Assembly: GCA_963764495.1 (NCBI GenBank)
Contig: CAVXSR010000005.1
Coordinates: 74,206-138,205, forward strand
DNA: 64,000 bases
DNA from: Vicinamibacteria bacterium
Lineage (GTDB): Bacteria; Acidobacteriota; Vicinamibacteria; Vicinamibacterales; JAENWD01
Direction of reading: 5' to 3'
Part shown: positions 7,534 to 60,522 of the stretch, one piece after another
Numbering within the stretch: the first letter of the stretch is position 1
Layout: every line of letters begins with the position of its first letter
Translations under genes and position numbers: made by a program
Notes under the pieces: generated by a model
The model's input: the letters and a program-made list of their open reading frames with translations, nothing else
What the model was told of the DNA's origin: nothing
Database searches by the model: none

Positions 7534-9306
7534 TTGTCCGCCCACGATGACGATGTAGTCGGCAAGGCCTACGACAGCCGCCTGATGCGGAGGCTGTTGG
7601 AGTACCTGCGTCCCTACAAGGTCCAGGTCGCGATTGCGCTGGTCTCGATTATCGCCAGCGCCGTGCTGCAGCTTGCGCCGCCTTACCTGACGCGGCTCGC
7701 GATCGACAAGTACATCGCGCACCACGATCTCAGCGGCCTGCCCGTCATCGCCTGGCAATTCCTCGGCGTGCTGCTCGCGTCGTTCGGCCTGGAATACGTG
7801 CAGACCTGGACGATGCAGCTGACCGGCCAGCGCATCATGTACGACCTGCGGATGGAGATCTACAACCACCTGCAGCGGCTGGACCTGCGGTTCTACGATC
7901 GCAATCCCGTCGGCCGGCTGATGACACGCGTCACGAGCGATGTCGATGTCCTGAACGACTTGTTCACGGCCGGCGTCGTCGCCATCTTCGGCGACGTGTT
8001 CACGCTGCTCGGCATCATGATCGTGATGCTGGGCATGAGCTGGCAGCTCGCGCTGGCCAGCTTCGTCGTGCTGCCGCTGATCGTGCTGGTCACGCAGTGG
8101 TTCCGCCGCAACGTCCGCGAGTCCTATCGCGTCGTGCGCGCGCTGATCGCCCGGATCAACGCCTACCTGCAGGAGAACCTGACCGGCATCTCGACGGTGC
8201 AGATGTTCCGCCGCGAGCCGGAGAACTTCTCCAGGTTCGAGCAGATCAACCGCGACCACCGCGACGCCAACATCCAGTCGATCTTCTTCTACGCCGTCTT
8301 CTATCCGGCGATCGAGCTCGTCGGCGCGTTGGCAGCCTCGATCATCATCTGGTTCGGCGGGCTGCAGGTGATGGAGGGGACGCTGACGCTCGGCGTCCTC
8401 GTCGCGTTCCTGCAGTACTCGGCGCGGTTCTACCGGCCGATCAGCGACATGTCGGAGAAGTTCAACGTCCTGCAGTCGGCGATGGCGTCGTCGGAACGCA
8501 TCTTCACGCTGCTCGACACGCCGGTGTCAGTGGTCAGTCCGGCGCGGCCGGTGACGCCTGATGCGCCGCTCACGGGGCACATCGTGTTCGATCGCGTCTG
8601 GTTCGCCTACAACAACGAAGACTGGGTGCTGAAGGACGTGTCGTTCGAGGTGCGGCCGGGAGACCGCGTCGCGCTCGTCGGCGCGACCGGCTCGGGAAAG
8701 ACGACGATCATCAGCCTGCTGCTGCGCTTCTACGATGTGCAGCGCGGTCAGATCCGGATTGATGGCGTCGACGTGCGCGACCTCGATCTCGACCGCCTGC
8801 GCCGACTGTTTGCCCTGGTCCTGCAGGACGTGCATCTGTTCTCGGGCACGATCGGGGGCAACATCCGCCTGGGCGACGAAGCCATCGACAATGCGACGGT
8901 CAGGAGCGCCGCGACGGCCGTGCGCGCCGACCGGTTCATCACCGCCCTGCCGGGCGGGTTCGACGCGCCGGTTGCCGAACGTGGCGCGACGCTGTCAACC
9001 GGCGAGAAGCAGCTGCTCTCGTTCGCCCGCGCCCTCGCGTTCGACCGACCGGTCCTGATCCTGGACGAGGCGACGTCGAGCGTCGATACCGAGACCGAGC
9101 ACACCATCCAGCAGGCTCTGCACGTCCTGATGGAGGGCCGAACGACCATTGCGATCGCGCACCGCCTTTCGACGATCCAGGACATGGATACGATCCTCGT
9201 GCTCCACAAGGGCGTCCTCAGGGAATCCGGCACCCACCAGGCCCTTCTGGCCCAGCGCGGCATCTACTACCGGCTGTATCAGCTGCAGTTCGCAAAGGTG
9301 GCGTAA
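7534..9306 (+). CDS. ABC transporter, fused permease/ATPase (MdlB-type partner)
   Basis: It has the motifs GATGSGKTT, LSTGEKQL and ILILDEATSSVD. The TTG start is preceded by GGAG (7524-7527). It is adjacent to and co-directional with the first half-transporter. Confidence 0.85.
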   Translation: MSAHDDDVVGKAYDSRLMRRLLEYLRPYKVQVAIALVSIIASAVLQLAPPYLTRLAIDKYIAHHDLSGLPVIAWQFLGVLLASFGLEYVQTWTMQLTGQRIMYDLRMEIYNHLQRLDLRFYDRNPVGRLMTRVTSDVDVLNDLFTAGVVAIFGDVFTLLGIMIVMLGMSWQLALASFVVLPLIVLVTQWFRRNVRESYRVVRALIARINAYLQENLTGISTVQMFRREPENFSRFEQINRDHRDANIQSIFFYAVFYPAIELVGALAASIIIWFGGLQVMEGTLTLGVLVAFLQYSARFYRPISDMSEKFNVLQSAMASSERIFTLLDTPVSVVSPARPVTPDAPLTGHIVFDRVWFAYNNEDWVLKDVSFEVRPGDRVALVGATGSGKTTIISLLLRFYDVQRGQIRIDGVDVRDLDLDRLRRLFALVLQDVHLFSGTIGGNIRLGDEAIDNATVRSAATAVRADRFITALPGGFDAPVAERGATLSTGEKQLLSFARALAFDRPVLILDEATSSVDTETEHTIQQALHVLMEGRTTIAIAHRLSTIQDMDTILVLHKGVLRESGTHQALLAQRGIYYRLYQLQFAKVA

Positions 9307-9406
9307 GGCGCATGCGCGCATGGGCGCATGGGATCTCCTATGCATCCGACAGGATGCACCCGCGCACCCTCCCTATGCGCCCATGCCCCCGTGCGCCCAT
9401 GCGCCT
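9304..9406. repeat. family B long hairpin (arms of CATGSGCG-type units)
   Basis: TAAGGCGCATGCGCGCATGGGCGCATGGG pairs with CCCATGCCCCCGTGCGCCCATGCGCCT. The central hairpin is TGCATCC-gac-aGGATGCA. It starts at the mdlB-like TAA. Confidence 0.75.
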
Positions 9407-13799: not shown

Positions 13800-14003
13800 A
13801 GCAGGAGATGGCCCCGGCGTGCCGTGTGGGGAGGTCGTTTGAACCTGCGAAAGCAGGTGGAACCGCTGTTTGAAAACCGCCCGTCAGGCTTCCTCGCGGC
13901 GGAGGCGTGCACACGGGGCGGCGTCGCGATTCACTTGGGTCTAGCGTTGGCTCAAGCGACTCTCCTGAGCCATCACGAGCACCCCAGGGCCGTTCCTATT
14001 CTA
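13800..14003 (-). ncRNA. ssrS: candidate 6S RNA
   Basis: It lies in a 375 bp ORF-free gap directly downstream of zapA on the same strand, which is the E. coli zapA-ssrS arrangement. A closing stem pairs GGCCCUGGGGUG (13991-13980) with CACGCCGGGGCC (13821-13810), giving a 182 nt core. A second stem pairs GGAGAGUCG with CGACCUCC. A hairpin ACCUGC-UUUC-GCAGGU (13858-13843) followed by UCAAA resembles the 3' bubble hairpin of E. coli 6S. Confidence 0.5.
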
Positions 14004-17999: not shown

Positions 18000-18178
18000 A
18001 GTGCTAAGTGCCGAGTGCTAAGTGCTAAGTGGAGTGGGAAGTGGAAAGTGCAGAGTGATGGGTTCTACTTCCGGACGGGCGCAAGGGTCACGACGGGGGC
18101 AAGTCGTAGGACCAACCCCCCACTTGTCACTGTTCAGTCTCAACTCCACTTGGCACTTTGCACTTAGCACTTGGCACT
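18000..18178. repeat. family C long hairpin (arms of AGTGCNA heptamers), copy 1
   Basis: The left arm reads agtgcta agtgccg agtgcta agtgcta agtggag.. and the right arm reads ..ccacttggcactttgcacttagcacttggcact. It fills the whole rplT-pheS spacer. Confidence 0.85.
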
Positions 18179-18181
18179 GCT

Positions 18182-18544
18182 TCAGTGGGCCGCGGCCGTG
18201 TCTCTAATCTGCGCGGCCAGCTTGCCGAATGCGGCCGCGTCGCGGGCAGCGATCTCGGCGAGCGCCTTGCGGTCGAGGGCGATGCCGGCGCGCTTCAGGC
18301 CGGCGATCAGATCGCGATAGGTCAGGCCATGCTCGCGCGCGGCGGCGTTGATGCGGACGATCCACAGGCGGCGGAAGTCGCGCTTCTTGTTGCGGCGGCC
18401 GACGAAGGCATACTTGAGCGCCGTGTCGCCCGACTCTTTGGCCGCGCGGTACAGCTTGCTCTTGTTGCCGAACATTCCTTTCGTCCGCGCCAGCAGCTTC
18501 TTCCGCTTCGCCCGACGAACCGTTCCACGCTTGACTCTAGGCAT
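18182..18544 (-). CDS. rplT: 50S ribosomal protein L20
   Basis: The protein begins MPRVKRGTVRRAKRKKLLARTKGMFGNKSKLYRAAKE.. . Confidence 0.95.
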   Translation of the reverse strand: MPRVKRGTVRRAKRKKLLARTKGMFGNKSKLYRAAKESGDTALKYAFVGRRNKKRDFRRLWIVRINAAAREHGLTYRDLIAGLKRAGIALDRKALAEIAARDAAAFGKLAAQIRDTAAAH

Positions 18545-18561: not shown

Positions 18562-18723
18562 ACCGAGCTAAAAGCTCGGTCCTACGTACGCTCTTCGTAG
18601 CCCCACGTCGTCTGCAGTAGGGCCCGACTTCCGCCTTCGCCGAGGCTTCGGCGGACCGCCGTAGCTTTAGCGGAGGCTGGTCAGTCGGGCCGGCACTGGC
18701 TGCACTAAAGTGCGGCCCTACTG
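18562..18723. repeat. family A cluster; the dimer at 18615-18723 carries a 51 nt nested insert in a hairpin loop
   Basis: The structure is ggcccgacTT[18631-18681 insert]CAgtcgggcc. It lies between rplT and rpmI. Confidence 0.85.
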
Positions 18724-18740: not shown

Positions 18741-18938
18741 CTATGCGTACGGCAACATCCGCTTCAGCCGATCCTGGTCCTGCTCGGCGACCTGGATGGT
18801 GCCGCGGAGCGACCGCTTCCGCTTGGTCGTCTTGCTGGTCAGGATGTGCCGCTTGAACGCGGACGCCCGACGAAACTTGCCGCCGGCGGATTTCTTGAAC
18901 CGCTTGGCGGCGCCCCGATGTGTCTTCAGCTTCGGCAT
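18741..18938 (-). CDS. rpmI: 50S ribosomal protein L35
   Basis: The protein begins [42 protein letters not shown].. . It lies in the same frame as infC with no intervening stop. Confidence 0.9.
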
Positions 18939-19598
18939 GTTCCCTAACTCTCGTTTCCCGGCGTGTCCGCCGGCGGTTGCGCGCGTCCCGGCGCCCACGC
19001 CGGCCGGTTGCGCAGCTGCCCGACGCGGCGCGTCGGCTGTCCCCTTGGTTCCCTTGCCCGATCGCTGCGCCAGAATCGTGTGCATCTGATTGCCTTCCTG
19101 GCGCGGCGCCGATTCCACGATCGCCGCCTCTCCCAGTTCGCCGATCAGGCGCTCGAGGATGCGGCGGCCGATCTCGGGGTGGGCCATCTCGCGGCCCCGG
19201 AAGAAGATCGTCGCCTTCACCTTGTCGCCGTCGGCGAGGAAGCGCTCGATGTGCTTCTTCTTGAACTGGTAATCGTGCTCGTCCACCTTCGGACGGAACT
19301 TGATTTCCTTGACTTCGATGATCCGCTGGTGCTTCTTCGCCTCGCGCGCGCGCTTCTGCTCCTGGTACTGATACTTCCCGTAATCCATGATCCGGCAGAC
19401 CGGCGGCACGGCGGTGGGGGAGATCTCGACCAGGTCGAGGCCCTTCTGACGAGCGATCGTCAGCGCCTGGGGCGGCGGCATGATGCCCAGCTGCTGCCCC
19501 GCATCGTCGATAACGCGCACTTCGCGCACCCGGATGCGTTCGTTCACGCGCACCCGATCGTCACGTCTGGGGCCTCTCGACCCGCGATCAAAAGCGAT
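18939..19598 (-). CDS. infC: translation initiation factor IF-3 (non-AUG ATC start; no in-frame stop before rpmI)
   Basis: It contains ..[53 protein letters not shown].. . GGGAGG plus 5 nt precedes ATC at 19598. The frame runs on through an Ala/Gly-rich tail into the rpmI ATG. Confidence 0.8.
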
Positions 19599-19626
19599 AA
19601 CTGCCTCCCAGGTTAGCCAGAGCGCC

Positions 19627-21552
19627 CTACTTTCTGTCTCGCACGTCGGCGAGCGCGGCCGAAACGAAGGCTTCGACGGGTTGGGCGCCCTGGTCCCCAC
19701 CCGCACGCGTCCGCACGGCGACCGTCCCTTCAGCCGCCTCGCGGTCCCCTATCACCAGCATGTATGGGATCTTCTGAAGCTGCGCTTCGCGAATTTTATA
19801 CCCGATCTTCTCCTGCCGCTCGTCGACCTCGGCCCGCAGCCCGGCCGCGTCCAGCCGCTGCTGTGTGGCCCGTGCGTAGTCCAGGTGCCGGTCCGCAATC
19901 GGCAGGAGCCGAACCTGCAGGGGCGCCAGCCACAGCGGAAACGCCCCGCCAAAATGCTCAATCAGGAGGGCAATGAACCGCTCGAAGCTCCCGTAGATCG
20001 CGCGGTGGATGACCACCGGCCGGTGCTCGGCGTTGTCGGCGCCGATGTACTTCAGGTCGAACCGCTCCGGCATCTGGTAGTCGAGCTGAATCGTCGCGCA
20101 CTGCCACTTGCGGCCCAGGGCATCCGTCACATCGAAGTCGATTTTCGGACCGTAGAACGCGCCGTCGCCGGCGTTAATCGTGTACGCCTGGCCGGCGTTC
20201 TCGAGCGCCTGTTGCAACGACGCCTCGGCGCGATCCCACGTCGCGATCTCGCCCATGAATTCGTGCTCGGGGCGCGTCGAGAGCTTGGCGGTGGACTCGA
20301 GCCCGAAATCCGCATACACGCGCTGTACGAGCTTCAACAGCGACTCGACCTCGGACGCGATCTGATCCTCGGTCACGAAGCAGTGCGCGTCGTCTTGCGA
20401 GAACTGACGGACGCGCGTCAGCCCGGACAGGACGCCGGACGCCTCGTTGCGGTGCAGCGGCGTCTGCTCGTGCAGGCGGATCGGCAGATCGCGATAGCTC
20501 CGGACCTCGCTGGCGAACACCAGCATGTGGCCGGGGCAGTTCATCGCCTTCACCGCCATCGCCTCGTTCTCGGATTCGACGAGGAACATGTTCTGGCGAT
20601 AGTGCTGCCAGTGCCCCGACGTTTCCCAGAGCGCCTTGTTGTAGATGAGCGGCGTCTTCACCTCGTCGTAGCCGGCGGGGAAGAGCACTTCGCGCATGTA
20701 GTTCGCCAGCGTGTTGTAGAGCAGCGTGCCCTTGCGCAGCCAGAACGCCGCGCCCGGCGCCCACGGATGAAACATGAAGAGGCCGGTCTCGCGGCCCACC
20801 TTGCGGTGATCGCGCTTCTTCGCTTCTTCGATCTGCGTGAGATGGGCCTTCAGCTCCTTGTCGGAGAAGAATGCCGTGCCGTAGACGCGCTGCATCGGCG
20901 CGTTCTTCGCGTCGCCCTTCCAATACGCGTTCGACGTCGTCAGCAGCTTGAACGCCTTCAGCTTGCCGGACGACGGCACGTGCGGACCGACGCAGAAGTC
21001 GATGAACGTGTCCTTGTCCTTGATCGTGTAGCAGGACACGTGCGACTGGCCTTCCGTCTTCTCGTCGATCAGCTGCACCTTCAGCGGCTCGCCGCGCTGT
21101 TTGAAGAACGCGCGCGCCTCGTCGCGCGGCCACAGCTGCCGCTCGTAAGGCAGGTTCGCCGCCGCCAGGTCGCGCATCTTCTGCTCGATCGCGTCGAGAT
21201 CCTCGGGCACGAACGGCCGGCTGACCACGAAATCGTAGAAGAATCCTTCGTCTGTCGCCGGGCCGATCCCGCACTGCGTGCCCGGAAAGAGCGCCGTGAC
21301 CGCCGCCGCCATCAGGTGCGCGGTGCTGTGGCGATAGAGATGAAGGGCTTCGGGGCTTTTCTCGGTGACAATCCGCACGTGCGCATCGGCCGTCAGGGGA
21401 TGCGACAGATCGACGAGCCGGTCGTCCACGACCGCCGCCAGCGCCGCCTCGGCGAGCCGCGGAGAGATCCCGGCCGCAACCGCGGACACAGCCGTCCCGG
21501 ACGCGACGGCCTTTTGTGAGCCGTCGGGCAGCGTGATTGTGACCTGACTCAT
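19627..21552 (-). CDS. thrS: threonine--tRNA ligase
   Basis: It begins [13 protein letters not shown].. (TGS domain) and carries class II motifs such as ..FRRDNLD-like/..[11 protein letters not shown].. . An alternative upstream ATG exists at 21594. Confidence 0.9.
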
Positions 21553-21629: not shown

Positions 21630-21706
21630 TGGTAGGCACGGGCAGACTCGAACTGCCGACCTCCTGCGTGTCAGGCAGGCGCTCTAACCAACTGAGCTAC
21701 GCGCCT
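21630..21706 (-). tRNA. tRNA-Val (anticodon GAC)
   Basis: The minus strand reads AGGCGCGTAGCTCAGTTGGTTAGAGCGCCTGCCTGACACGCAGGAGGTCGGCAGTTCGAGTCTGCCCGTGCCTACCA. It folds as a cloverleaf with a 7 bp acceptor stem, anticodon loop CUGACAC, T-loop TTCGAGT and an encoded CCA. Confidence 0.95.
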
Positions 21707-21771: not shown

Positions 21772-21797
21772 TCGTCGGGGCGGGCCTTATCTCGTGT

Positions 21798-21826
21798 TGG
21801 AGCGGGGCTTTAGCCCCGCCTCCCAA
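21798..21826. repeat. family A hairpin downstream of hup
   Basis: The sequence is ttggaGCGGGGCTTTAGCCCCGCctccca. Confidence 0.8.
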
Positions 21827-24591: not shown

Positions 24592-24756
24592 AGTGCAAAG
24601 TGGCAAGTGCCAACTGCCAAGTGGAGTGAGGAGTGGGAAGTGATGAGTGATGGGCAAGGCCTCAGGGGAGCGTTTACCCGAGCGGTGATTCTTGTCTCCA
24701 CTGCCCCCTTCCTATTTTTCATTCCACTTGGCACTTAGCAGTTAGCACTTGGCACT
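24592..24756. repeat. family C long hairpin, copy 2
   Basis: The left arm reads agtgcaa agtggca agtgcca actgcca agtggag.. and the right arm reads ..ccacttggcacttagcagttagcacttggcact. It lies in the envC-like/ruvX divergent region. Confidence 0.85.
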
Positions 24757-24779
24757 GTGAGTGTCTGTTACCATGCCCT

Positions 24780-28460: not shown

Positions 28461-28615
28461 TGGCAGTGCCAAGTGCTAAGTGCGAAGTGCGAAGTGCCAA
28501 GTGGAGTGGGAAGTGGCAAGTGGACAGTGAGGGGCAACCCCTGAGGTGTTGCCCCTCACTCACCACTATTCACTCTTCACTCCACTTAGCACTTCGCACT
28601 TAGCACTTGGCACTA
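28461..28615. repeat. family C long hairpin, copy 3 (most regular)
   Basis: The left arm is agtgcca agtgcta agtgcga agtgcga agtgcca agtggag.. . The centre is agtgaggggcaac-ccct-gaggt-gttgcccctcact. The right arm is its complement minus one heptamer. It fills the xseB-tlyA spacer. Confidence 0.9.
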
Positions 28616-28867
28616 TTTCGTCTCTCCCAGTCCCGGCGGCGCGGGCTTGAGGTCGCCGCGCTCGTTCAGGATCTCGATGCGGCGCTCGGCCTGCTCGAGG
28701 CGCGAATGGCAGAACCGGGACAGCTCGACGCCGCGTTCGTAGAGCGCGAGCGACGACTCGAGCGTCAGGTCGCCGTCTTCGAGGCGTTTGACGATCGACT
28801 CGAGCTCGGTCAGCGCGGCCTCGAAGTCCTTGATCGTCTCGATCGGGGCGGAATCCTTGATCGTCAT
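28613..28867 (-). CDS. xseB: exodeoxyribonuclease VII small subunit
   Basis: It contains ..FEAALTELESIVKRLEDGDLTLESSLALYERGVELSRFC.. . Confidence 0.9.
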   Translation of the reverse strand: MTIKDSAPIETIKDFEAALTELESIVKRLEDGDLTLESSLALYERGVELSRFCHSRLEQAERRIEILNERGDLKPAPPGLGETK

Positions 28868-33718: not shown

Positions 33719-33721
<3 letters not shown>

Positions 33722-33848
33722 GGCGCATGGGCACATGGGTTCATGGGCGCATGGGTTCATGGGCGCATGGGGACGGGCGTCGGGGTTGACCGAGCGTTCC
33801 CTCTGCGCTCATGCGCCTATGCCCTCATGCGCCTATGCCCTGATGCGC
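33719..33848. repeat. family B long hairpin, copy 2
   Basis: The left arm reads TAAGGCGCATGGG cacatggg ttcatggg cgcatggg ttcatggg cgcatgggg and the right arm reads ..ctcatgcgcctatgccctcatgcgcctatgccctgatgcgc. It lies between dnaK and hsp20. Confidence 0.75.
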
Positions 33849-40467: not shown

Positions 40468-40633
40468 GTGGAGGCGGGCCTTCCGCCGTCGCTCGGAAGC
40501 TTCGGCGGACCGCCGTAGCCTTGGCGGAGACTGGTCAGGCCCGCCATCGCGATCGCGGGGCTAAAGTCCCGTCGCCACACCGATATCTGTAGGGTTCGGG
40601 TCCGCCCTGGCGGAGCTAAAGCTCCGCCCTACT
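40468..40633. repeat. family A cluster; the first hairpin carries a 53 nt nested insert in its loop
   Basis: The structure is ggcgggccTT[40483-40535 insert]CAggcccgcc. Further hairpins lie at 40555-40575 and 40609-40628. Confidence 0.85.
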
Positions 40634-44151: not shown

Positions 44152-45529
44152 ATGCCTGATCGCTGCCCGACCCGCCGAGTGCGTCGTCGGCTGACGTGCG
44201 TTGTGACCCTGTGGACGGCAATCGCCGTCCTCCTCGTGTCCGCGCCGCTTCCCGCCGCAGTACCGCCTCCGAAGCTCGACTACCGCATCACGACGCTGCC
44301 GAACGGCCTCACGGTCGTGCTGCTCGAGGATCATTCGACGCCGATCGCCCACGTTCAGATCTGGTACCACGTGGGCTCGAAAGACGAACGGGCCGGCCGC
44401 ACCGGCTTCGCCCATCTCTTCGAGCACATGATGTTCAAGGGATCGAAGAACGTCGAGTCCGAGGCGCACACGTCTGTACATCTCGAGCGTCGGCGGCCAG
44501 AGCAACGCCTACACGCTCGAAGACGTCACGGTCTACTGGGAAACGGCGCCGGCCCAGTATCTGCCGCTGATGCTGTGGCTCGAAGCCGACCGGATGGCGA
44601 CGTTGCGCGTCGACGAAGACACGTTTCAGCGCGAGCGCCTGGTCGTCAAGGAAGAGCGCCGGATGAAGGTCGAGAACCAGCCGTACGGCCGGTTGTCCGA
44701 GCTGATTTACAACCAGGCGTTCACCGTTCACCCCTACAAGCACCCGATCATCGGCAGCATGGAAGATCTCGAGGCGGCATCGATCGAGGATGTGCGCGCG
44801 TTCTTCCGCACTTACTACGTGCCGACCAATGCGACGCTCACCATCGTGGGCGATTTCGATCCCGATCAGGCGACGCGCATGGTGGAGCAGTACTTCGGCC
44901 GCATTCCGAGGCCGCAGAATGCCGTGCCGCGCGACATCCCGGTCGAGCCGCCGATGACCAAGGAGAAGCGCGTCACGCTGGAGCAGCCGTGGCCGCTTCC
45001 GGCGGTCGTCGTCGCGCACCACATCACCTTCGACGGCGACCCCGACTCCTATCCGCTGCACATGGCGTCGAAGATCCTGTCCGACGGACAGAGCTCGCGC
45101 ATCTATCGAAAGCTGGTCTACGACACCGGGTTGGCGCTCACGGCCTTCGGCGGCGGCAACATCATCGAGCATCCGAACCTGTTTTTCGCGGTCGGCATCG
45201 TGCAGCCCGGGCACACGCCGGAAGAAGTCGAGAAGGCGCTGATTGCCGAGCTCGACCGGATGACATCAGAGCCGGTGAGCGCCCACGAGCTCGAGCGCGC
45301 GAAGAACCAGTTCGCGCGCGACTACATTCTCGGTCGCGAGACGATTCAGGAGAAGGCCTCGCAGCTCGCACACGCCGTTGTCATCCACAACGACATTCGG
45401 ACGGCGGACGGCGAGTTCAACATCTTTCAGGGCATCACGGCCGAGGACATCCAGCGCGTGGCGAAGAAGTATTTCACGCCGGCCAATCGCCTTGTCCTGA
45501 CGATCATGCCGAGGGCGGCGACTCAATGA
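44152..45529 (+). pseudogene. M16 (insulinase/pitrilysin) family zinc peptidase, catalytic-type subunit; frame broken by one extra base
   Basis: It has a signal peptide and the HxxEH motif (GFAHLFEHMMFKGS). Frame 1 up to ..ESEAHTS continues in frame 2 as ..ISSVGGQSNAYTLEDVTVYWETAPAQYLPLMLWLEADR.., with an extra base at about 44476-44479. Confidence 0.7.
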
Positions 45530-47082
45530 AGGACGAAGGACGAGGGACGAAGGACGAAGGGGTAGGGGCGCACTGCGTGCGCCCTGGACGAGCCGCGCGC
45601 CGCGTGATGGCGATGGCGCTCGCGCTGGGCGCGCTGCCGGGCGTCGCTTCCGCGCAGGTGACGTCGTGGCCAACGGAGCGGCCGCCGTTGGCGTTACCGG
45701 CACGCGACGTCAAGTTCCCGCCGTACGAGATCCGGACGCTCGCGAACGGCTTGCAGATTGTGGTCGTCCAGCACCATGAGCAACCGGTGGTCACGCTGCG
45801 ACTGCTGGTGCGGGCCGGCGCCTCGTCGGATCCCGACAACAAGCAGGGGACGGCCGTGCTGACGGCGGCGTTGCTCGATCAAGGCACGACCACCAGGTCG
45901 GCCGCCCAGATCGCCGACACGATTGACACGGTGGGCGGTGGTCTCGGCACTGGCGCCGGAACCGATCTGTCGTTCACCAACGTGCTGGTGATGAAGGACA
46001 GCCTCAGACTGGGATTCGAGCTCCTGAGCGACGTCGCGAGAAACCCGGCGTTCAGCCCGGAAGAGCTCGAGCGGCAGCGGCAACAGGCGCTCTCAGGGCT
46101 GAAAGTGAGCTACGAGGATCCGGATTACGTCGCCGGCCTCGTGTTCGATCGGCTGGTCTACGGCTTCCACCCGTACGGCATGCCGAACAACGGCACGCTG
46201 GAATCGTTGCAGTCGATTACGGCGGACGATCTGCGCGCCTTCCATCACGCCCATTACACGCCGAACAATTCGATACTCGCCGTCGTCGGCGACATCGCAC
46301 CGGACGAGGCGTTTGCGGACGCCGAACGTGTGCTCGGCAGCTGGCAACGACGAGCGGTTGCGCCAGTGCCCCAGGCCAAGCCGCCGGATCCAACGCGCCG
46401 TGTCGTGGTCATCAACAAGCCCGATTCGGTTCAGACCGAGCTTCGTGTCGGTCAGCTCGCCATCCCGCGGAAGCATCCCGATTACCTGGCCTATGACCTC
46501 GCCATGAAGATCCTCGGCGGGGAAGGGGCGAACCGGTTGCACCGCGTGCTCCGGTCGGAGCGCGGCCTGACCTACGGCGCGTCAGCCGAGTATCAGGCGC
46601 TCCAGCAGGCCGGCGATTTCGCCGCGGACACGGACACCCGATCCGAGACGACCGCCGAGGCGCTGCGGCTGATTGTCGACGAGATCACGAAGCTGCAGCG
46701 CGAGCGCGTGTCGTCTCGCGAGCTGGCCGATGCGCAGGCCTACCTCGAAGGCAGTTTTCCGCTCACGATCGAGACGCCGGACGCGATCGCCGCGCAGGTG
46801 CTGAACGCCATCTTCTATGGATTGCCCCTGAGCGACATCGAGAACTACCGCGACCTGGTGAACGAGATCACGCCCGACGACATCCAACGCGTCGCACGGC
46901 AGTACCTGAAGCCCGACCGGCTGTCAGTGGTGCTCGTCGGCAACGCCGATGCCTTCGTGAAGGATCTGGCCGGTGTCGGGTTTCCTCAGTACGAACTGGT
47001 CAACTTGCCTGAGCTCGATTTGACCTCCGCGACCCTGCACCGGCGGCCGCGGACGGCGTCAGGGCCTCGCGGCGCACCATAA
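45526..47082 (+). CDS. M16 family peptidase, non-catalytic-type partner (no HxxEH)
   Basis: It contains ..YEIRTLANGLQIVVVQHHEQPVVTLRLLVRAGASSD.. and ..AFHHAHYTPNNSILAVVGD.. . ATG 45526 overlaps the upstream stop. The first ~12 codons are a heptamer-repeat element, so the real start may be the MAMALALG.. Met. Confidence 0.75.
   Translation: MKDEGRGTKDEGVGAHCVRPGRAARRVMAMALALGALPGVASAQVTSWPTERPPLALPARDVKFPPYEIRTLANGLQIVVVQHHEQPVVTLRLLVRAGASSDPDNKQGTAVLTAALLDQGTTTRSAAQIADTIDTVGGGLGTGAGTDLSFTNVLVMKDSLRLGFELLSDVARNPAFSPEELERQRQQALSGLKVSYEDPDYVAGLVFDRLVYGFHPYGMPNNGTLESLQSITADDLRAFHHAHYTPNNSILAVVGDIAPDEAFADAERVLGSWQRRAVAPVPQAKPPDPTRRVVVINKPDSVQTELRVGQLAIPRKHPDYLAYDLAMKILGGEGANRLHRVLRSERGLTYGASAEYQALQQAGDFAADTDTRSETTAEALRLIVDEITKLQRERVSSRELADAQAYLEGSFPLTIETPDAIAAQVLNAIFYGLPLSDIENYRDLVNEITPDDIQRVARQYLKPDRLSVVLVGNADAFVKDLAGVGFPQYELVNLPELDLTSATLHRRPRTASGPRGAP
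45527..45590. repeat. family D (GGACGAA heptamers plus hairpin) at the 5' end of the second M16 gene
   Basis: The sequence reads gaaggac gaaggac gagggac gaaggac gaagggg, then AGGGGCGCAC-tgc-GTGCGCCCT. Confidence 0.65.
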
Positions 47083-49859: not shown

Positions 49860-50578
49860 AGGGCGCCGCGGGCCTCTACACATTCGTCACGCTGCTGTGT
49901 GGATCGGCGACGATCGCCGTTGCGCAGGATGCCGCGCCGCGTCCGCGGTCATTCGAGGTATCGGCGAGCGCTCTCGCGCTTGGTGGCGTCGATTTTGGCA
50001 GCCAGAACGCGAACCTCACGGCCAACGATCCCGGGAATCCTGATTTCATCCTGTTCGCGACCTCGAGCCAGCTCGACACCGGGGCGGGTCTCGATGCGCG
50101 CGTGACGTTCAATCTGTCGCGGACATTTGCGATCGAGGGCGCGTTCACGTGGACGCGGCAGACGGCGGAGACGGCAGTCACCTCCGACAGCGAGGCGGTG
50201 CCCAACATCACGCTGACGCAGGACTTGTCCACCTACTTCGTGGAAGCCGCGACAGTCGTGCACCTTCACGGCCTCCAGTTCGCCCATGGACGAGGCCTGC
50301 CGTTCGTCTTCGCTGGCGGCGGATATCTACGGCAGCTCGACGGCGAGTCGATCCTCGTCGATACGGGAACCGTGTTCGATGCCGGAGGCGGCGTGAAGTA
50401 TTTCTTTGCGACGCGGCCGCACGGATTGGTGCGCGCCATCGGTGTGCGCGCCGATGGCCGGATTTACGTGCGCTCGGGAGGGCTCGATCTGAGCGCTGAC
50501 GAGGGACGAGGAACGGAGGACGAAGGACGATGGCGGCCGACGTGGGGCATGGCGGCCGGCCTGGTCGTGCGCTTCTGA
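49856..50578 (+). CDS. outer-membrane beta-barrel protein (translationally coupled to the matrixin gene)
   Basis: GTG 49856 overlaps the upstream TGA. It has a signal peptide (..ATIAVAQD), an amphipathic strand pattern and a terminal ..GLVVRF. A heptamer-repeat insert encodes ..ADEGRGTEDEGR.. near the C-terminus. Confidence 0.6.
   Translation: MKGAAGLYTFVTLLCGSATIAVAQDAAPRPRSFEVSASALALGGVDFGSQNANLTANDPGNPDFILFATSSQLDTGAGLDARVTFNLSRTFAIEGAFTWTRQTAETAVTSDSEAVPNITLTQDLSTYFVEAATVVHLHGLQFAHGRGLPFVFAGGGYLRQLDGESILVDTGTVFDAGGGVKYFFATRPHGLVRAIGVRADGRIYVRSGGLDLSADEGRGTEDEGRWRPTWGMAAGLVVRF
50495..50545. repeat. family D heptamer element inside the OMP CDS
   Basis: The sequence gacgagggacgaggaacggaggacgaaggacgatgg encodes DEGRGTEDEGR, compared with DEGRGTKDEG at 45527. 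Confidence 0.6.
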
Positions 50579-50590
50579 GCCCGGTGATGT

Positions 50591-50650
50591 GGAGGCGGGC
50601 CTTCAGGCCCGCATCTGCCGCTGAAAGCAGGGCTAAAGCCCCGCCTCCAC
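50591..50650. repeat. family A cluster between the OMP gene and thrC
   Basis: It contains gcgggccTTCAggcccgc and ..gggcTAAAgccccgcctccac. The latter contains the thrC stop. Confidence 0.85.
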
Positions 50651-60473: not shown

Positions 60474-60522
60474 GGGGCCTGTCCCCACTGGCACAAAAGC
60501 GGTGCCAGTGGGGACAGGCCCC
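60474..60522. terminator. perfect 21 bp palindrome between convergent genes (bidirectional terminator candidate; family E repeat)
   Basis: The sequence is GGGGCCTGTCCCCACTGGCAC-aaaagcg-GTGCCAGTGGGGACAGGCCCC. It sits 2 nt after one stop codon and abuts the other. Confidence 0.6.

Follow-up and report, generated by a model that had tools for sequence, protein, structure and literature searches.

A 64,000-nucleotide (nt) stretch from a Vicinamibacteria bacterium (GenBank assembly GCA_963764495.1, contig CAVXSR010000005.1, positions 74,206 to 138,205 of the forward strand; here called the window) carries two copies of a 50- to 53-nt element, each lodged in the loop of a short hairpin of the repetitive extragenic palindromic (REP) type. 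The element is a non-autonomous mobile DNA present throughout the Vicinamibacteria that inserts precisely and in one orientation at CTT^YRG (^, point of insertion), and we think it probable that it moves as single-stranded DNA (ssDNA) by means of an HUH/Y1 transposase supplied in trans. The mobile nature of the element is strongly supported; the ssDNA route and the enzyme acting in trans are what we infer from its anatomy and its target.

The window is 66.7% G+C and is dense in short palindromes of the GTAG-REP type. REPs of this type are defined by GT[AG]G lying 0 to 2 nt 5′ of a GC-rich hairpin with a 6- to 13-bp stem and a very short (TY) loop, and by many dispersed intergenic copies (PMC3733652, PMC6006769). 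Those of the window have a GTAGG or GTGGAGG foot, an 8- to 9-bp stem of variable sequence, and an invariant centre, CT-TY-AG, and both of the hairpins that host the element are GTAG-type REPs by this definition. Reading the window directly, we found insert 1 (51 nt) at 18631-18681 and insert 2 (53 nt) at 40483-40535, with the coordinates and sequences of inserts and hairpins as quoted in an earlier note on this DNA. Their alignment has 45 identities in 53 columns (85%, the value that the note had estimated by eye). Removal of the inserts leaves hairpins centred on CTTCAG, as the note had also observed, and these resemble the 29 uninterrupted CT-YY-AG-centred hairpins of the window. The features at the two sites, with the neighbouring genes of site 1, are as follows.

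18617 to 18630, plus strand: GTAG foot (18617-18620) and left half, GGCCCGACTT (18621-18630), of host REP 1; the empty allele is GGCCCGACTTCAGTCGGGCC.
18631 to 18681, plus strand: element copy 1 (51 nt), CCGCCTTCGCCGAGGCTTCGGCGG-A-CCGCCGTAGCTTTAGCGGAGGCTGG-T, of the CTTTAG subfamily; nhmmer score of 57 bits over the full length; missing at the orthologous site in L117, L118, L119, and L129.
18631 to 18654, plus strand: arm 1 of copy 1, a hairpin that combines a CCGCC/GGCGG stem and a TTC/TTC internal loop with a mini-hairpin of variable sequence at the apex, GCC-GA-GGC.
18656 to 18681, plus strand: arm 2 of copy 1, CCGCC-GTAGCTTTA-GCGG followed by the tail AGGCTGGT; includes the conserved GTAG.
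18682 to 18691, plus strand: right half of host REP 1, CAGTCGGGCC.
18698 to 18721, plus strand: inverted partner REP, GGCTGCACTAAAGTGCGGCC-CTAC (family D1), which forms a REP doublet with host REP 1 between rpmI and rplT and is present in empty and filled alleles alike.
40468 to 40482, plus strand: GTGGA foot and left half, GGCGGGCCTT (40473-40482), of host REP 2, a member of the GTGGAGG subfamily (family D8), like the REPs at 477-509, 21787-21819, and 50580-50612.
40483 to 40535, plus strand: element copy 2 (53 nt), CCGCCGTCGCTCGGAAGCTTCGGCGG-A-CCGCCGTAGCCTTGGCGGAGACTGG-T, of the CCTTGG subfamily; nhmmer score of 48.5 bits over the full length.
40536 to 40545, plus strand: right half of host REP 2, CAGGCCCGCC.
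18182 to 18544, minus strand: rplT, encoding ribosomal protein L20 (Pfam Ribosomal_L20 on identical products), on one flank of site 1.
18741 to 18938, minus strand: rpmI, encoding ribosomal protein L35 (Pfam Ribosomal_L35p on identical products), on the other flank of site 1.

The two host hairpins are different, as had been claimed: their stems differ, and so do their foot families (GTAGG at site 1 and GTGGAGG at site 2). Because the flanks differ as well, we rejected a segmental duplication as the origin of the pair. Both insertions had been placed inside a tetraloop, at CTT^CAG. That position holds, with two refinements: the junction is ambiguous by one base in either direction (CT^TC^AG), since C is the first base of the insert and T its last, and the "tetraloop" is formally the centre of 2 nt (loop of 4 nt) in a 20-nt palindrome that is almost perfect. 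A degenerate arm 1 pattern, CCGCCNNNGC-N2-9-GCNNNGGCGG, matched the 64 kb twice, at the two known inserts, against 0.07 matches expected from shuffled sequences, and a profile hidden Markov model built from all copies detected no further copy in the window.

Site 1 is a spacer of the infC-rpmI-rplT operon, inside a thrS-infC-rpmI-rplT-pheS cluster. Its alleles were gathered from metagenome contigs that encode exactly identical L35 (65 amino acids) or L20. Five alleles are filled, with the same insert in all (the window, L116, L121, L122, and L130; L numbers are our labels for loci other than the window). The other four (L117, L118, L119, and L129) are empty and read GGCCCGACTGAAGTCGGGCC / ...GCCGGCCCGACTGAAGTCGGGCCCTACTGCAG... 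on the gene strand, corresponding to the intact hairpin GGCCCGACTTCAGTCGGGCC on the plus strand of the window. Between empty and filled alleles, the spacer flanks have 0 to 2 changes and the size differs by exactly 51 nt. Site 1 is a clean presence/absence polymorphism among very close relatives from different soil metagenomes, so the comparison of close relatives proposed in the earlier note does yield both kinds of allele. Their exactness rules out a mere long-loop variant of the REP and also a segmental duplication that took in the flanks, an alternative raised in the same note; together with the copies at CTT^YRG elsewhere, they support its proposal of a second-order, non-autonomous element. 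For site 2, we found no empty and filled alleles: look-ups with the flanking proteins gave at most one 3-kb contig, and pattern scans of metagenomes (empty site, right flank) were blank. By analogy with site 1, we read site 2 as a probable insertion.

The census of other genomes used as probe the 18-mer TTCGGCGGACCGCCGTAG, common to both window copies, on a collection with one genome per species; all copy counts given here are counts among the matches listed. At least 114 stretches matched the 18-mer, 3 of them by chance (L010, L046, and L106), and at least 111 copies, including the two of the window, matched the pattern of the full element. Judged by the number of assembly prefixes, the listed copies come from about 65 metagenome-assembled genomes (MAGs), one of which (JBOGIV) contributes at least 9 loci. 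Nearly all of these MAGs are labelled Acidobacteriota, Vicinamibacterales, Vicinamibacteria, "gp6," or Luteitalea; three labelled "Bifidobacteri-" and one labelled Bryobacteraceae are suspected to be binning or labelling errors. The wide, multi-copy spread in Vicinamibacteria indicates that the element is an old, multi-copy resident of the class.

Flanks were tabulated for the 110 listed copies that had enough flanking sequence. The three bases on the 5′ side are C in 101, T in 101, and T in 107 copies, and those on the 3′ side are Y in 108, R in 106, and G in 89, which gives CTT^YRG; the commonest contexts are CTT^CAG (39 copies), CTT^TAG (21 copies), and CTT^CGG (14 copies). At least 55 copies lie in a REP loop under a strict definition, in 41 different inner stems and with one orientation throughout, which extends to all of these the common orientation and loop position that had been noticed for the two window copies. 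GTAG lies on the 5′ side in 33 of these 55 copies and CTAC on the 3′ side in none, so the orientation to the asymmetric REP is fixed. In 64% of copies, pairing between the two flanks reaches −12 kcal/mol or lower, compared to 20% of controls in which left and right flanks were mismatched. Since CTTYRG is the conserved tip of GTAG-type REP hairpins, REP loops are the main landing site; they carry the target in large numbers and probably also expose it as a single strand.

Copies that are not in hairpin REPs occupy other hairpins (GCGCGGCGACTT^CGCGCCGCGC in L042, L049, and L096), heptamer arrays, coding regions, the internal loop of the element's own arm 1, or sites without evident pairing. Within arrays of the heptamer CATCGTG (L027:371-422, L067:4198-4246, L094:1976-2026, and L082:988-1039), CTT or a near variant still stands on the 5′ side. 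As copies outside hairpins keep CTT^YRG, the short sequence appears to be the primary determinant: it is the constant feature, and a hairpin loop is usual and, it appears, not obligatory. The earlier note had the element target the conserved loop of the host repeat and had counted copies at unrelated sites outside hairpin loops against this view. The loop is indeed the main landing site, but about 30 to 35% of copies have no recognizable hairpin, and these are nevertheless flanked by CTT^YRG as well.

The element also inserts into itself. Self-insertion occurs at GCTT^CGGCGG, in the unpaired TTC internal loop of arm 1, and makes up most of the CTT^CGG class. Nested copies were found in L076, L011, L012, L020, L062, and L107 (for instance, L076:4636-4719, L020:3098-3198, L011:5972-6054, and L062:1636-1719), with two-level nests and, in L076 and L020, up to three levels within a single REP hairpin. 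In L078 (283-360), the arm 2 loop of the element (GTAGCT^...^TTAGCGG) is split by a hairpin of another sequence, about 41 nt long (CCACCCCACGGCGCACAGTCCGCGCCGTGGGG...), which indicates that other hairpin sequences land in loops too.

The junctions limit any target-site duplication (TSD). In the 21 or 22 hosts with CTTTAG, the left junction is always CT-TC-CGCC and the right junction always GG-TT-AG; these differing dinucleotides exclude a duplication of 2 bp or more. In CTTCAG hosts, a 2-bp TC repeat can be read on both sides, and a 1-nt T repeat is compatible with the data. The element shares the pattern of IS200/IS605-type insertion sequences (ISs): it enters 3′ of a short fixed sequence and in a single orientation, makes no TSD of 2 bp or more, and has its target restored exactly at the empty site.

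The element consists of two tandem hairpins one base apart, which share a CCGCC/GGCGG stem, and has the consensus CCGCCTTCGC-[apex]-GCTTCGGCGG-A-CCGCCGTAGC-CTTG/TTTA-GCGGAGGC(T)GG-T. Arm 1 has the form CCGCC-TTC-[variable mini-hairpin]-TTC-GGCGG and is followed by A. Its apex is hypervariable, with 46 distinct versions in the 111 listed copies (among them GCC-AA-GGC, GC-TGAA-GC, and GCGC-GAA-GCGC), and pairing is kept despite this variation, with 2.5 terminal pairs compared to 0.46 in shuffled sequences. Arm 2 has the general form CCGCC-GTAGCYTTRGC-GG(A)GG plus a short tail; it is either CCGCC-GTAGCCTT-GGCGG or, in a second subfamily, CCGCC-GTAGCTTTA-GCGG, and the tail is AGGCTGGT or, in another subfamily, AGGCGGT. 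Arm 1 matches the reverse complement of arm 2 at about 19 to 22 of 24 or 25 positions, as counted by eye. A single long hairpin and two separate hairpins are therefore alternative folds, and they are almost isoenergetic, whether as DNA or as RNA, with z-scores of −2 to −5; the minimum free energy fold is the long hairpin for copy 1 and for the consensus sequences. The arm stems are invariant, and covariation is for that reason uninformative between the two folds as far as the stems go; the part that varies is the arm 1 apex, and it favours the two-hairpin form. Folded as RNA, the composite has an energy of −52.7 kcal/mol (z = −6.7).

Measured against REPINs (REP doublets able to form hairpins), the element does consist of two inverted units that can form one long hairpin. 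It does not have GT[AG]G at the 5′ foot of each hairpin: the NCTT of the target precedes arm 1, CGGA precedes arm 2, and the conserved GTAG is located within arm 2. Neither site gave a gathering-score match in Rfam, where only sub-threshold hairpins of microRNA type were returned (16 to 22 bits, against cut-offs of 55 to 100), and ARAGORN found no tRNA at either. With ARAGORN and both the gathering and E-value modes of Rfam devoid of a relevant match, we rejected a tRNA-like or known structured RNA.

Two sequences akin to parts of the element were seen. Single-arm versions of about 24 nt, CCGCC-TYC-GC..GC-TAC-GGCGG, stand alone at L057:1839-1864, L057:4672-4697, and L031:2168-2189; two of them sit in REP hairpins and are followed by ACAAGGA, and they are possibly a related shorter family or an ancestral unit. 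Seven loci (L028, L041, L090, L100, L110, L113, and L088) belong to a host REP family whose stem, CTTCCGCC/GGCGGAAG, has exactly the sequence of the target joined to the first bases of the element. L113 and L088 lack one of the two CCGCCTT repeats, which suggests slippage or else a clue to the origin of the element.

Context classes were assigned with a crude gene call based on G+C content at third codon positions. Copies between co-oriented genes number 20 in one orientation and 26 in the other, which is no strand bias; 17 copies lie between convergent and 7 between divergent genes, and about a fifth lie within long open reading frames (ORFs). A length of 51 nt equals 17 codons, and Pfam confirmed in-frame copies, in each case the element together with its REP, in the Pkinase domain of two kinases (L051:3719-3769 and L057:4789-4839), in a sulfatase domain (L006:6312-6362), and in the PHP domain of a DnaE-type polymerase (L097:664-714). 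A REP together with an element is in-frame at L031:230-280, in the N-terminal part of an ORF identified by eye as DUF1800-like. Depending on frame and strand, intragenic inserts encode, for example, SASAEASADRRSLGEGRS or PPSQTLRRTAVASAEAG. The absence of strand bias and the in-frame intragenic copies argue against a strand-specific RNA function, and we rejected that reading because there is no strand bias relative to genes.

We propose that the element would move as ssDNA and that an HUH/Y1 transposase, either a REP-associated tyrosine transposase (RAYT/TnpA-REP) or an IS200/IS605-like enzyme, would be supplied in trans. Insertion would be into targets exposed as single strands in the loops of extruded or lagging-strand hairpins; CTTYRG would be available in this form in hairpin loops and also in the arm 1 internal loop. 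We favour this route because 51 bp are too short and stiff for a duplex circle or a paired-end complex; because the element has no gene, and has hairpins with identical stems at both ends of one strand; and because it needs a specific 5′ sequence and has one orientation, no duplication, and an exact empty site. Y1 enzymes act solely on ssDNA hairpin substrates and can excise and rejoin REP DNA and bacterial interspersed mosaic element (BIME) DNA (PMC3333891, PMC6006769). The cleavage site of Escherichia coli TnpA-REP is C^T (PMC3333891).

Several observations weigh against this proposal. None of the junctions that the data allow (CT^T, CTT^C, and CTTC^A) is the C^T of E. coli TnpA-REP. Canonical REPs have GTAG at the 5′ foot of a hairpin, and the element has it within arm 2. 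Arm 1 begins at the junction, so that there is no space 5′ of the left hairpin for a guide like that of IS608, and, given the copies without a recognizable hairpin, structure may not be required. The joined ends (GG-TC-CG) share TC with CTTCAG, which would suit a site-specific recombinase that uses a core dinucleotide. The empty alleles of site 1 could in principle be slippage deletions stimulated by the palindrome and not ancestral or excised sites; such an origin would still leave many independent insertions elsewhere to explain. Lastly, no HUH/Y1 gene was detected: tblastn with approximate YafM-like (RAYT) and IS200-like probes gave no match at E < 0.1 in 0.93 Mb drawn from many genomes (the window and 130 further loci), a lead only, in a sample where a single-copy gene would rarely fall.

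Other searches for a mobilizing enzyme gave the same picture. Among the roughly 49 predicted genes of the window, none is transposase-like as judged from N-terminal sequences; the set is one of housekeeping genes (thrS, rplT, dnaK, groEL, ABC transporters, and similar). The recurrent neighbour families of the copies include no transposase, and in particular no DEDD transposase; they are MacB/FtsX proteins, TonB-type barrels, kinases, sigma factors, and the like. A weak match of L031 to the transposase probes was discarded as a DUF1501-type ORF that carries a half-element. The longer autonomous relative envisaged in the earlier note did not turn up: in the 0.93 Mb, a search for unpaired ends returned nested copies, half-elements, and chance matches, and no separated ends that enclose a gene. 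With no transposase nearby and no ends enclosing a gene, the element is non-autonomous and unlinked to its mobilizer, and the likeness to IS1397/ISKpn1 and IS200/IS605 drawn in that note stands as an analogy, no transposase having been identified.

Four other explanations were weighed against ssDNA transposition by an HUH/Y1 enzyme. The first, which we consider unlikely, is a structure-directed process of another kind, in which a host nuclease nicks a hairpin loop and a hairpin oligonucleotide is then ligated, or in which a new class of loop-specific enzyme acts. The lack of any known transposase linked to the element would be in keeping with such a process, as would the foreign hairpin in the arm 2 loop of L078 and the half-elements in REP loops of L057, which suggest that loops accept hairpins of several kinds. 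The strict CTT^YRG target, kept outside hairpins too, and the defined ends point instead to a sequence-specific enzyme.

The main rival, and a distinctly unlikely one, is core-dinucleotide recombination of the IS110 type: a site-specific mini-element would be moved by an IS110/IS1111-type DEDD recombinase, with the bridge/seek RNA encoded elsewhere, and would recombine at a core dinucleotide that the REP loop has in common with the joined ends. IS110 is the IS family most commonly found in REPs (IS621, ISPpu9/10, and ISPa11 [PMC1525189, PMC12288879]), and its members have neither inverted repeats nor a conventional TSD and insert in a single orientation. Moreover, TC is present both in the joined ends (...CTGG-TC-CGCC...) and in the target (ACT-TC-AGT), and this fits both junctions at CTTCAG hosts. 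That core does not fit CTTTAG hosts, where TC is always on the left and TT always on the right, an outcome that random resolution of a mismatched core would not give. The element encodes neither the DEDD recombinase nor the internal guide RNA that characterize IS110/IS1111 members, no DEDD transposase recurs beside its copies, and a duplex circle of 51 bp is physically implausible.

A classical MITE (a miniature transposable element with inverted repeats), cut and pasted by a DDE transposase that recognizes terminal inverted repeats (TIRs) and prefers REP loops, as IS1397/ISKpn1 of the IS3 family do, is very unlikely. The ends, CCGCCTTCGC... and ...GCGGAGGC(T)GG, come close to an inverted repeat, and DDE elements that target REP loops are known (PMC1525189). 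A MITE is expected to have TIRs together with a TSD of fixed length; here the ends are only TIR-like, a TSD of 2 bp or more is absent, and the empty site differs by exactly 51 nt. Strict single orientation is unexpected for an element with TIRs at a near-palindromic target, 51 bp is below both the size of known MITEs and the persistence length of DNA, and no longer relative with the same ends was found in the 0.93-Mb sample.

Least credible, and largely refuted by the stem diversity and the clean empty allele with otherwise identical flanks, is the view that there is no separate mobile element at all but a "long-loop" REP variant, amplified as one unit with the stem or retained for some structural or RNA function (terminator or mRNA stabilizer). 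In its favour, Bradyrhizobium has GTAG REPs whose loops are self-complementary, reach 27 bp, and have GCGG/CCGC termini, and these are on record as loop variants (PMC3733652); the composite fold is very stable; and copies are enriched between convergent over divergent genes. Against it, one insert is common to 41 stems of different sequence and to two families of REP foot, and it is also found in its own arm, outside hairpins, and within coding regions, with no strand bias relative to transcription and no Rfam match.

We tentatively suggest, further, that this may be the first natural REPIN-like hairpin element with a defined, sequence-specific insertion reaction: into CTT^YRG in loops, orientation fixed, without TSD, self-nesting, and polymorphic today. 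In that case, either a RAYT-type enzyme would indeed transpose REPINs, or a novel loop-directed ssDNA mechanism would be at work. To our knowledge, transposition of a REPIN by RAYT has never been directly observed. If the suggestion is correct, the "complex loops" of GTAG REPs in other phyla would be explained as nested insertions.

The window contains other repeats and RNAs. Three intergenic inverted arrays (18000-18074 with 18116-18183, 24592-24666 with 24694-24761, and 28472-28546 with 28552-28619) each pair a series of 8-nt units, similar to AGTGCNAA and degenerating to AGTGGGAA, with the inverted run TTNGCACT about 40 nt further on; they are a second, unrelated repeat class in the same kinds of spacer. 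In the related contigs L115 and L128, an inverted array of the octamer ATTGCGGA replaces the REP doublet in the rpmI-rplT spacer. Short-period tandem arrays at 9304-9332, 33719-33771, 45528-45574, and 50501-50533 are made of octamers of the GCGCATGG type and of units of the GAAGGACG type that recur every 7 nt. At 60474-60522, between two convergent ORFs, there is a perfect 21-bp stem with a 7-nt loop (GGGGCCTGTCCCCACTGGCAC-aaaagcg-GTGCCAGTGGGGACAGGCCCC), which does not resemble the REP family and may represent a terminator or some other element. Rfam and ARAGORN identified a 6S RNA (13807-13993, minus strand; 67.9 bits) and a tRNA-Val(GAC) (21630-21706, minus strand). Next to site 1, the longest ORF at 18741-19706 (minus strand) joins an IF3-like sequence and L35 in-frame with no intervening stop. 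In gene calls of contigs with identical L35, infC and rpmI are 5 to 6 nt apart, and the fused ORF may be an artefact of the listing or a frame difference.

That REPs are targets of full-size IS elements is well known (PMC1525189), as are REPINs as miniature mobile DNA (PMC3116915). RAYT enzymes cut and rejoin REP DNA in vitro, and an insertion event with a defined target has been undocumented (PMC3333891, PMC6006769). In the open-access literature, we found no description of a gene-less, REPIN-like miniature element with a defined target in REP loops, self-nesting, and natural polymorphism. The element bears on how REPs and REPINs spread, for it offers an unambiguous target, exact empty and filled alleles in the wild, and nests that record successive events. 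It also supplies concrete substrates for biochemistry: its ends, the CTTYRG target, and a predicted circle junction, GGT|CCGCC. REP loops emerge as landing pads for miniature elements and not for full-size ISs alone, with insertions that reach operon spacers (rpmI-rplT) and, in-frame, protein domains. The element is a strain-level population-genetic marker for Vicinamibacteria, an abundant soil group, and should be of interest both for REP/RAYT biology and for the population genomics of Acidobacteria.

Of the known systems, Rickettsia palindromic elements (RPEs) and intragenic REPs (PMC3733652) resemble the element in that some of its copies are in-frame in functional-looking genes; they differ in sequence family and clade, and most copies of the element are intergenic. 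Long-loop GTAG REPs, such as GTAG-14 of Bradyrhizobium (PMC3733652), likewise hold a self-complementary GC-rich segment with CCGC/GCGG-type ends in the loop, but they are described as loop variants of a family, whereas the element is a discrete unit common to unrelated stems and with empty and filled alleles. The REP-targeting ISs, IS1397/ISKpn1 (IS3) and IS621, ISPpu9/10, and ISPa11 (IS110) (PMC1525189, PMC12288879, PMC11208160), insert specifically into REPs, as the element does, and those of the IS110 type share its single orientation and lack of a classical TSD. They are, however, autonomous elements of 1 to 2.5 kb that encode a transposase (plus a guide RNA in IS110), while the element has 51 nt, no gene, and the habit of nesting in itself. 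IS200/IS605 elements and their miniature derivatives, the palindrome-associated transposable elements (PATEs), also have hairpins at both ends of the same strand, insert 3′ of a short specific sequence in one orientation, need no inverted repeat, make no TSD, and leave an exact empty site. Against this likeness, no TnpA was found (0.93 Mb), the left hairpin abuts the junction without an evident guide arrangement of the IS608 type, in which guides 5′ of each hairpin are complementary to the cleavage sites, and 51 nt is far below the described derivatives. REPINs, or REP-BIME doublets with RAYT (PMC3116915, PMC3333891, PMC6006769), share several features: they are tiny and non-coding, with two inverted hairpin units that can form one long hairpin, and they are non-autonomous, dispersed in many mostly intergenic copies per genome, found in genomes rich in GTAG REPs, and variable in presence between close strains. 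Unlike REPINs, whose genomes have a cognate RAYT gene that those REPs usually flank, the element is not linked to a RAYT and its junction is not the C^T of E. coli TnpA-REP; it carries GTAG inside arm 2, has a 1-base spacer between its arms, and inserts at a defined target, CTT^YRG, in other REPs and in itself.

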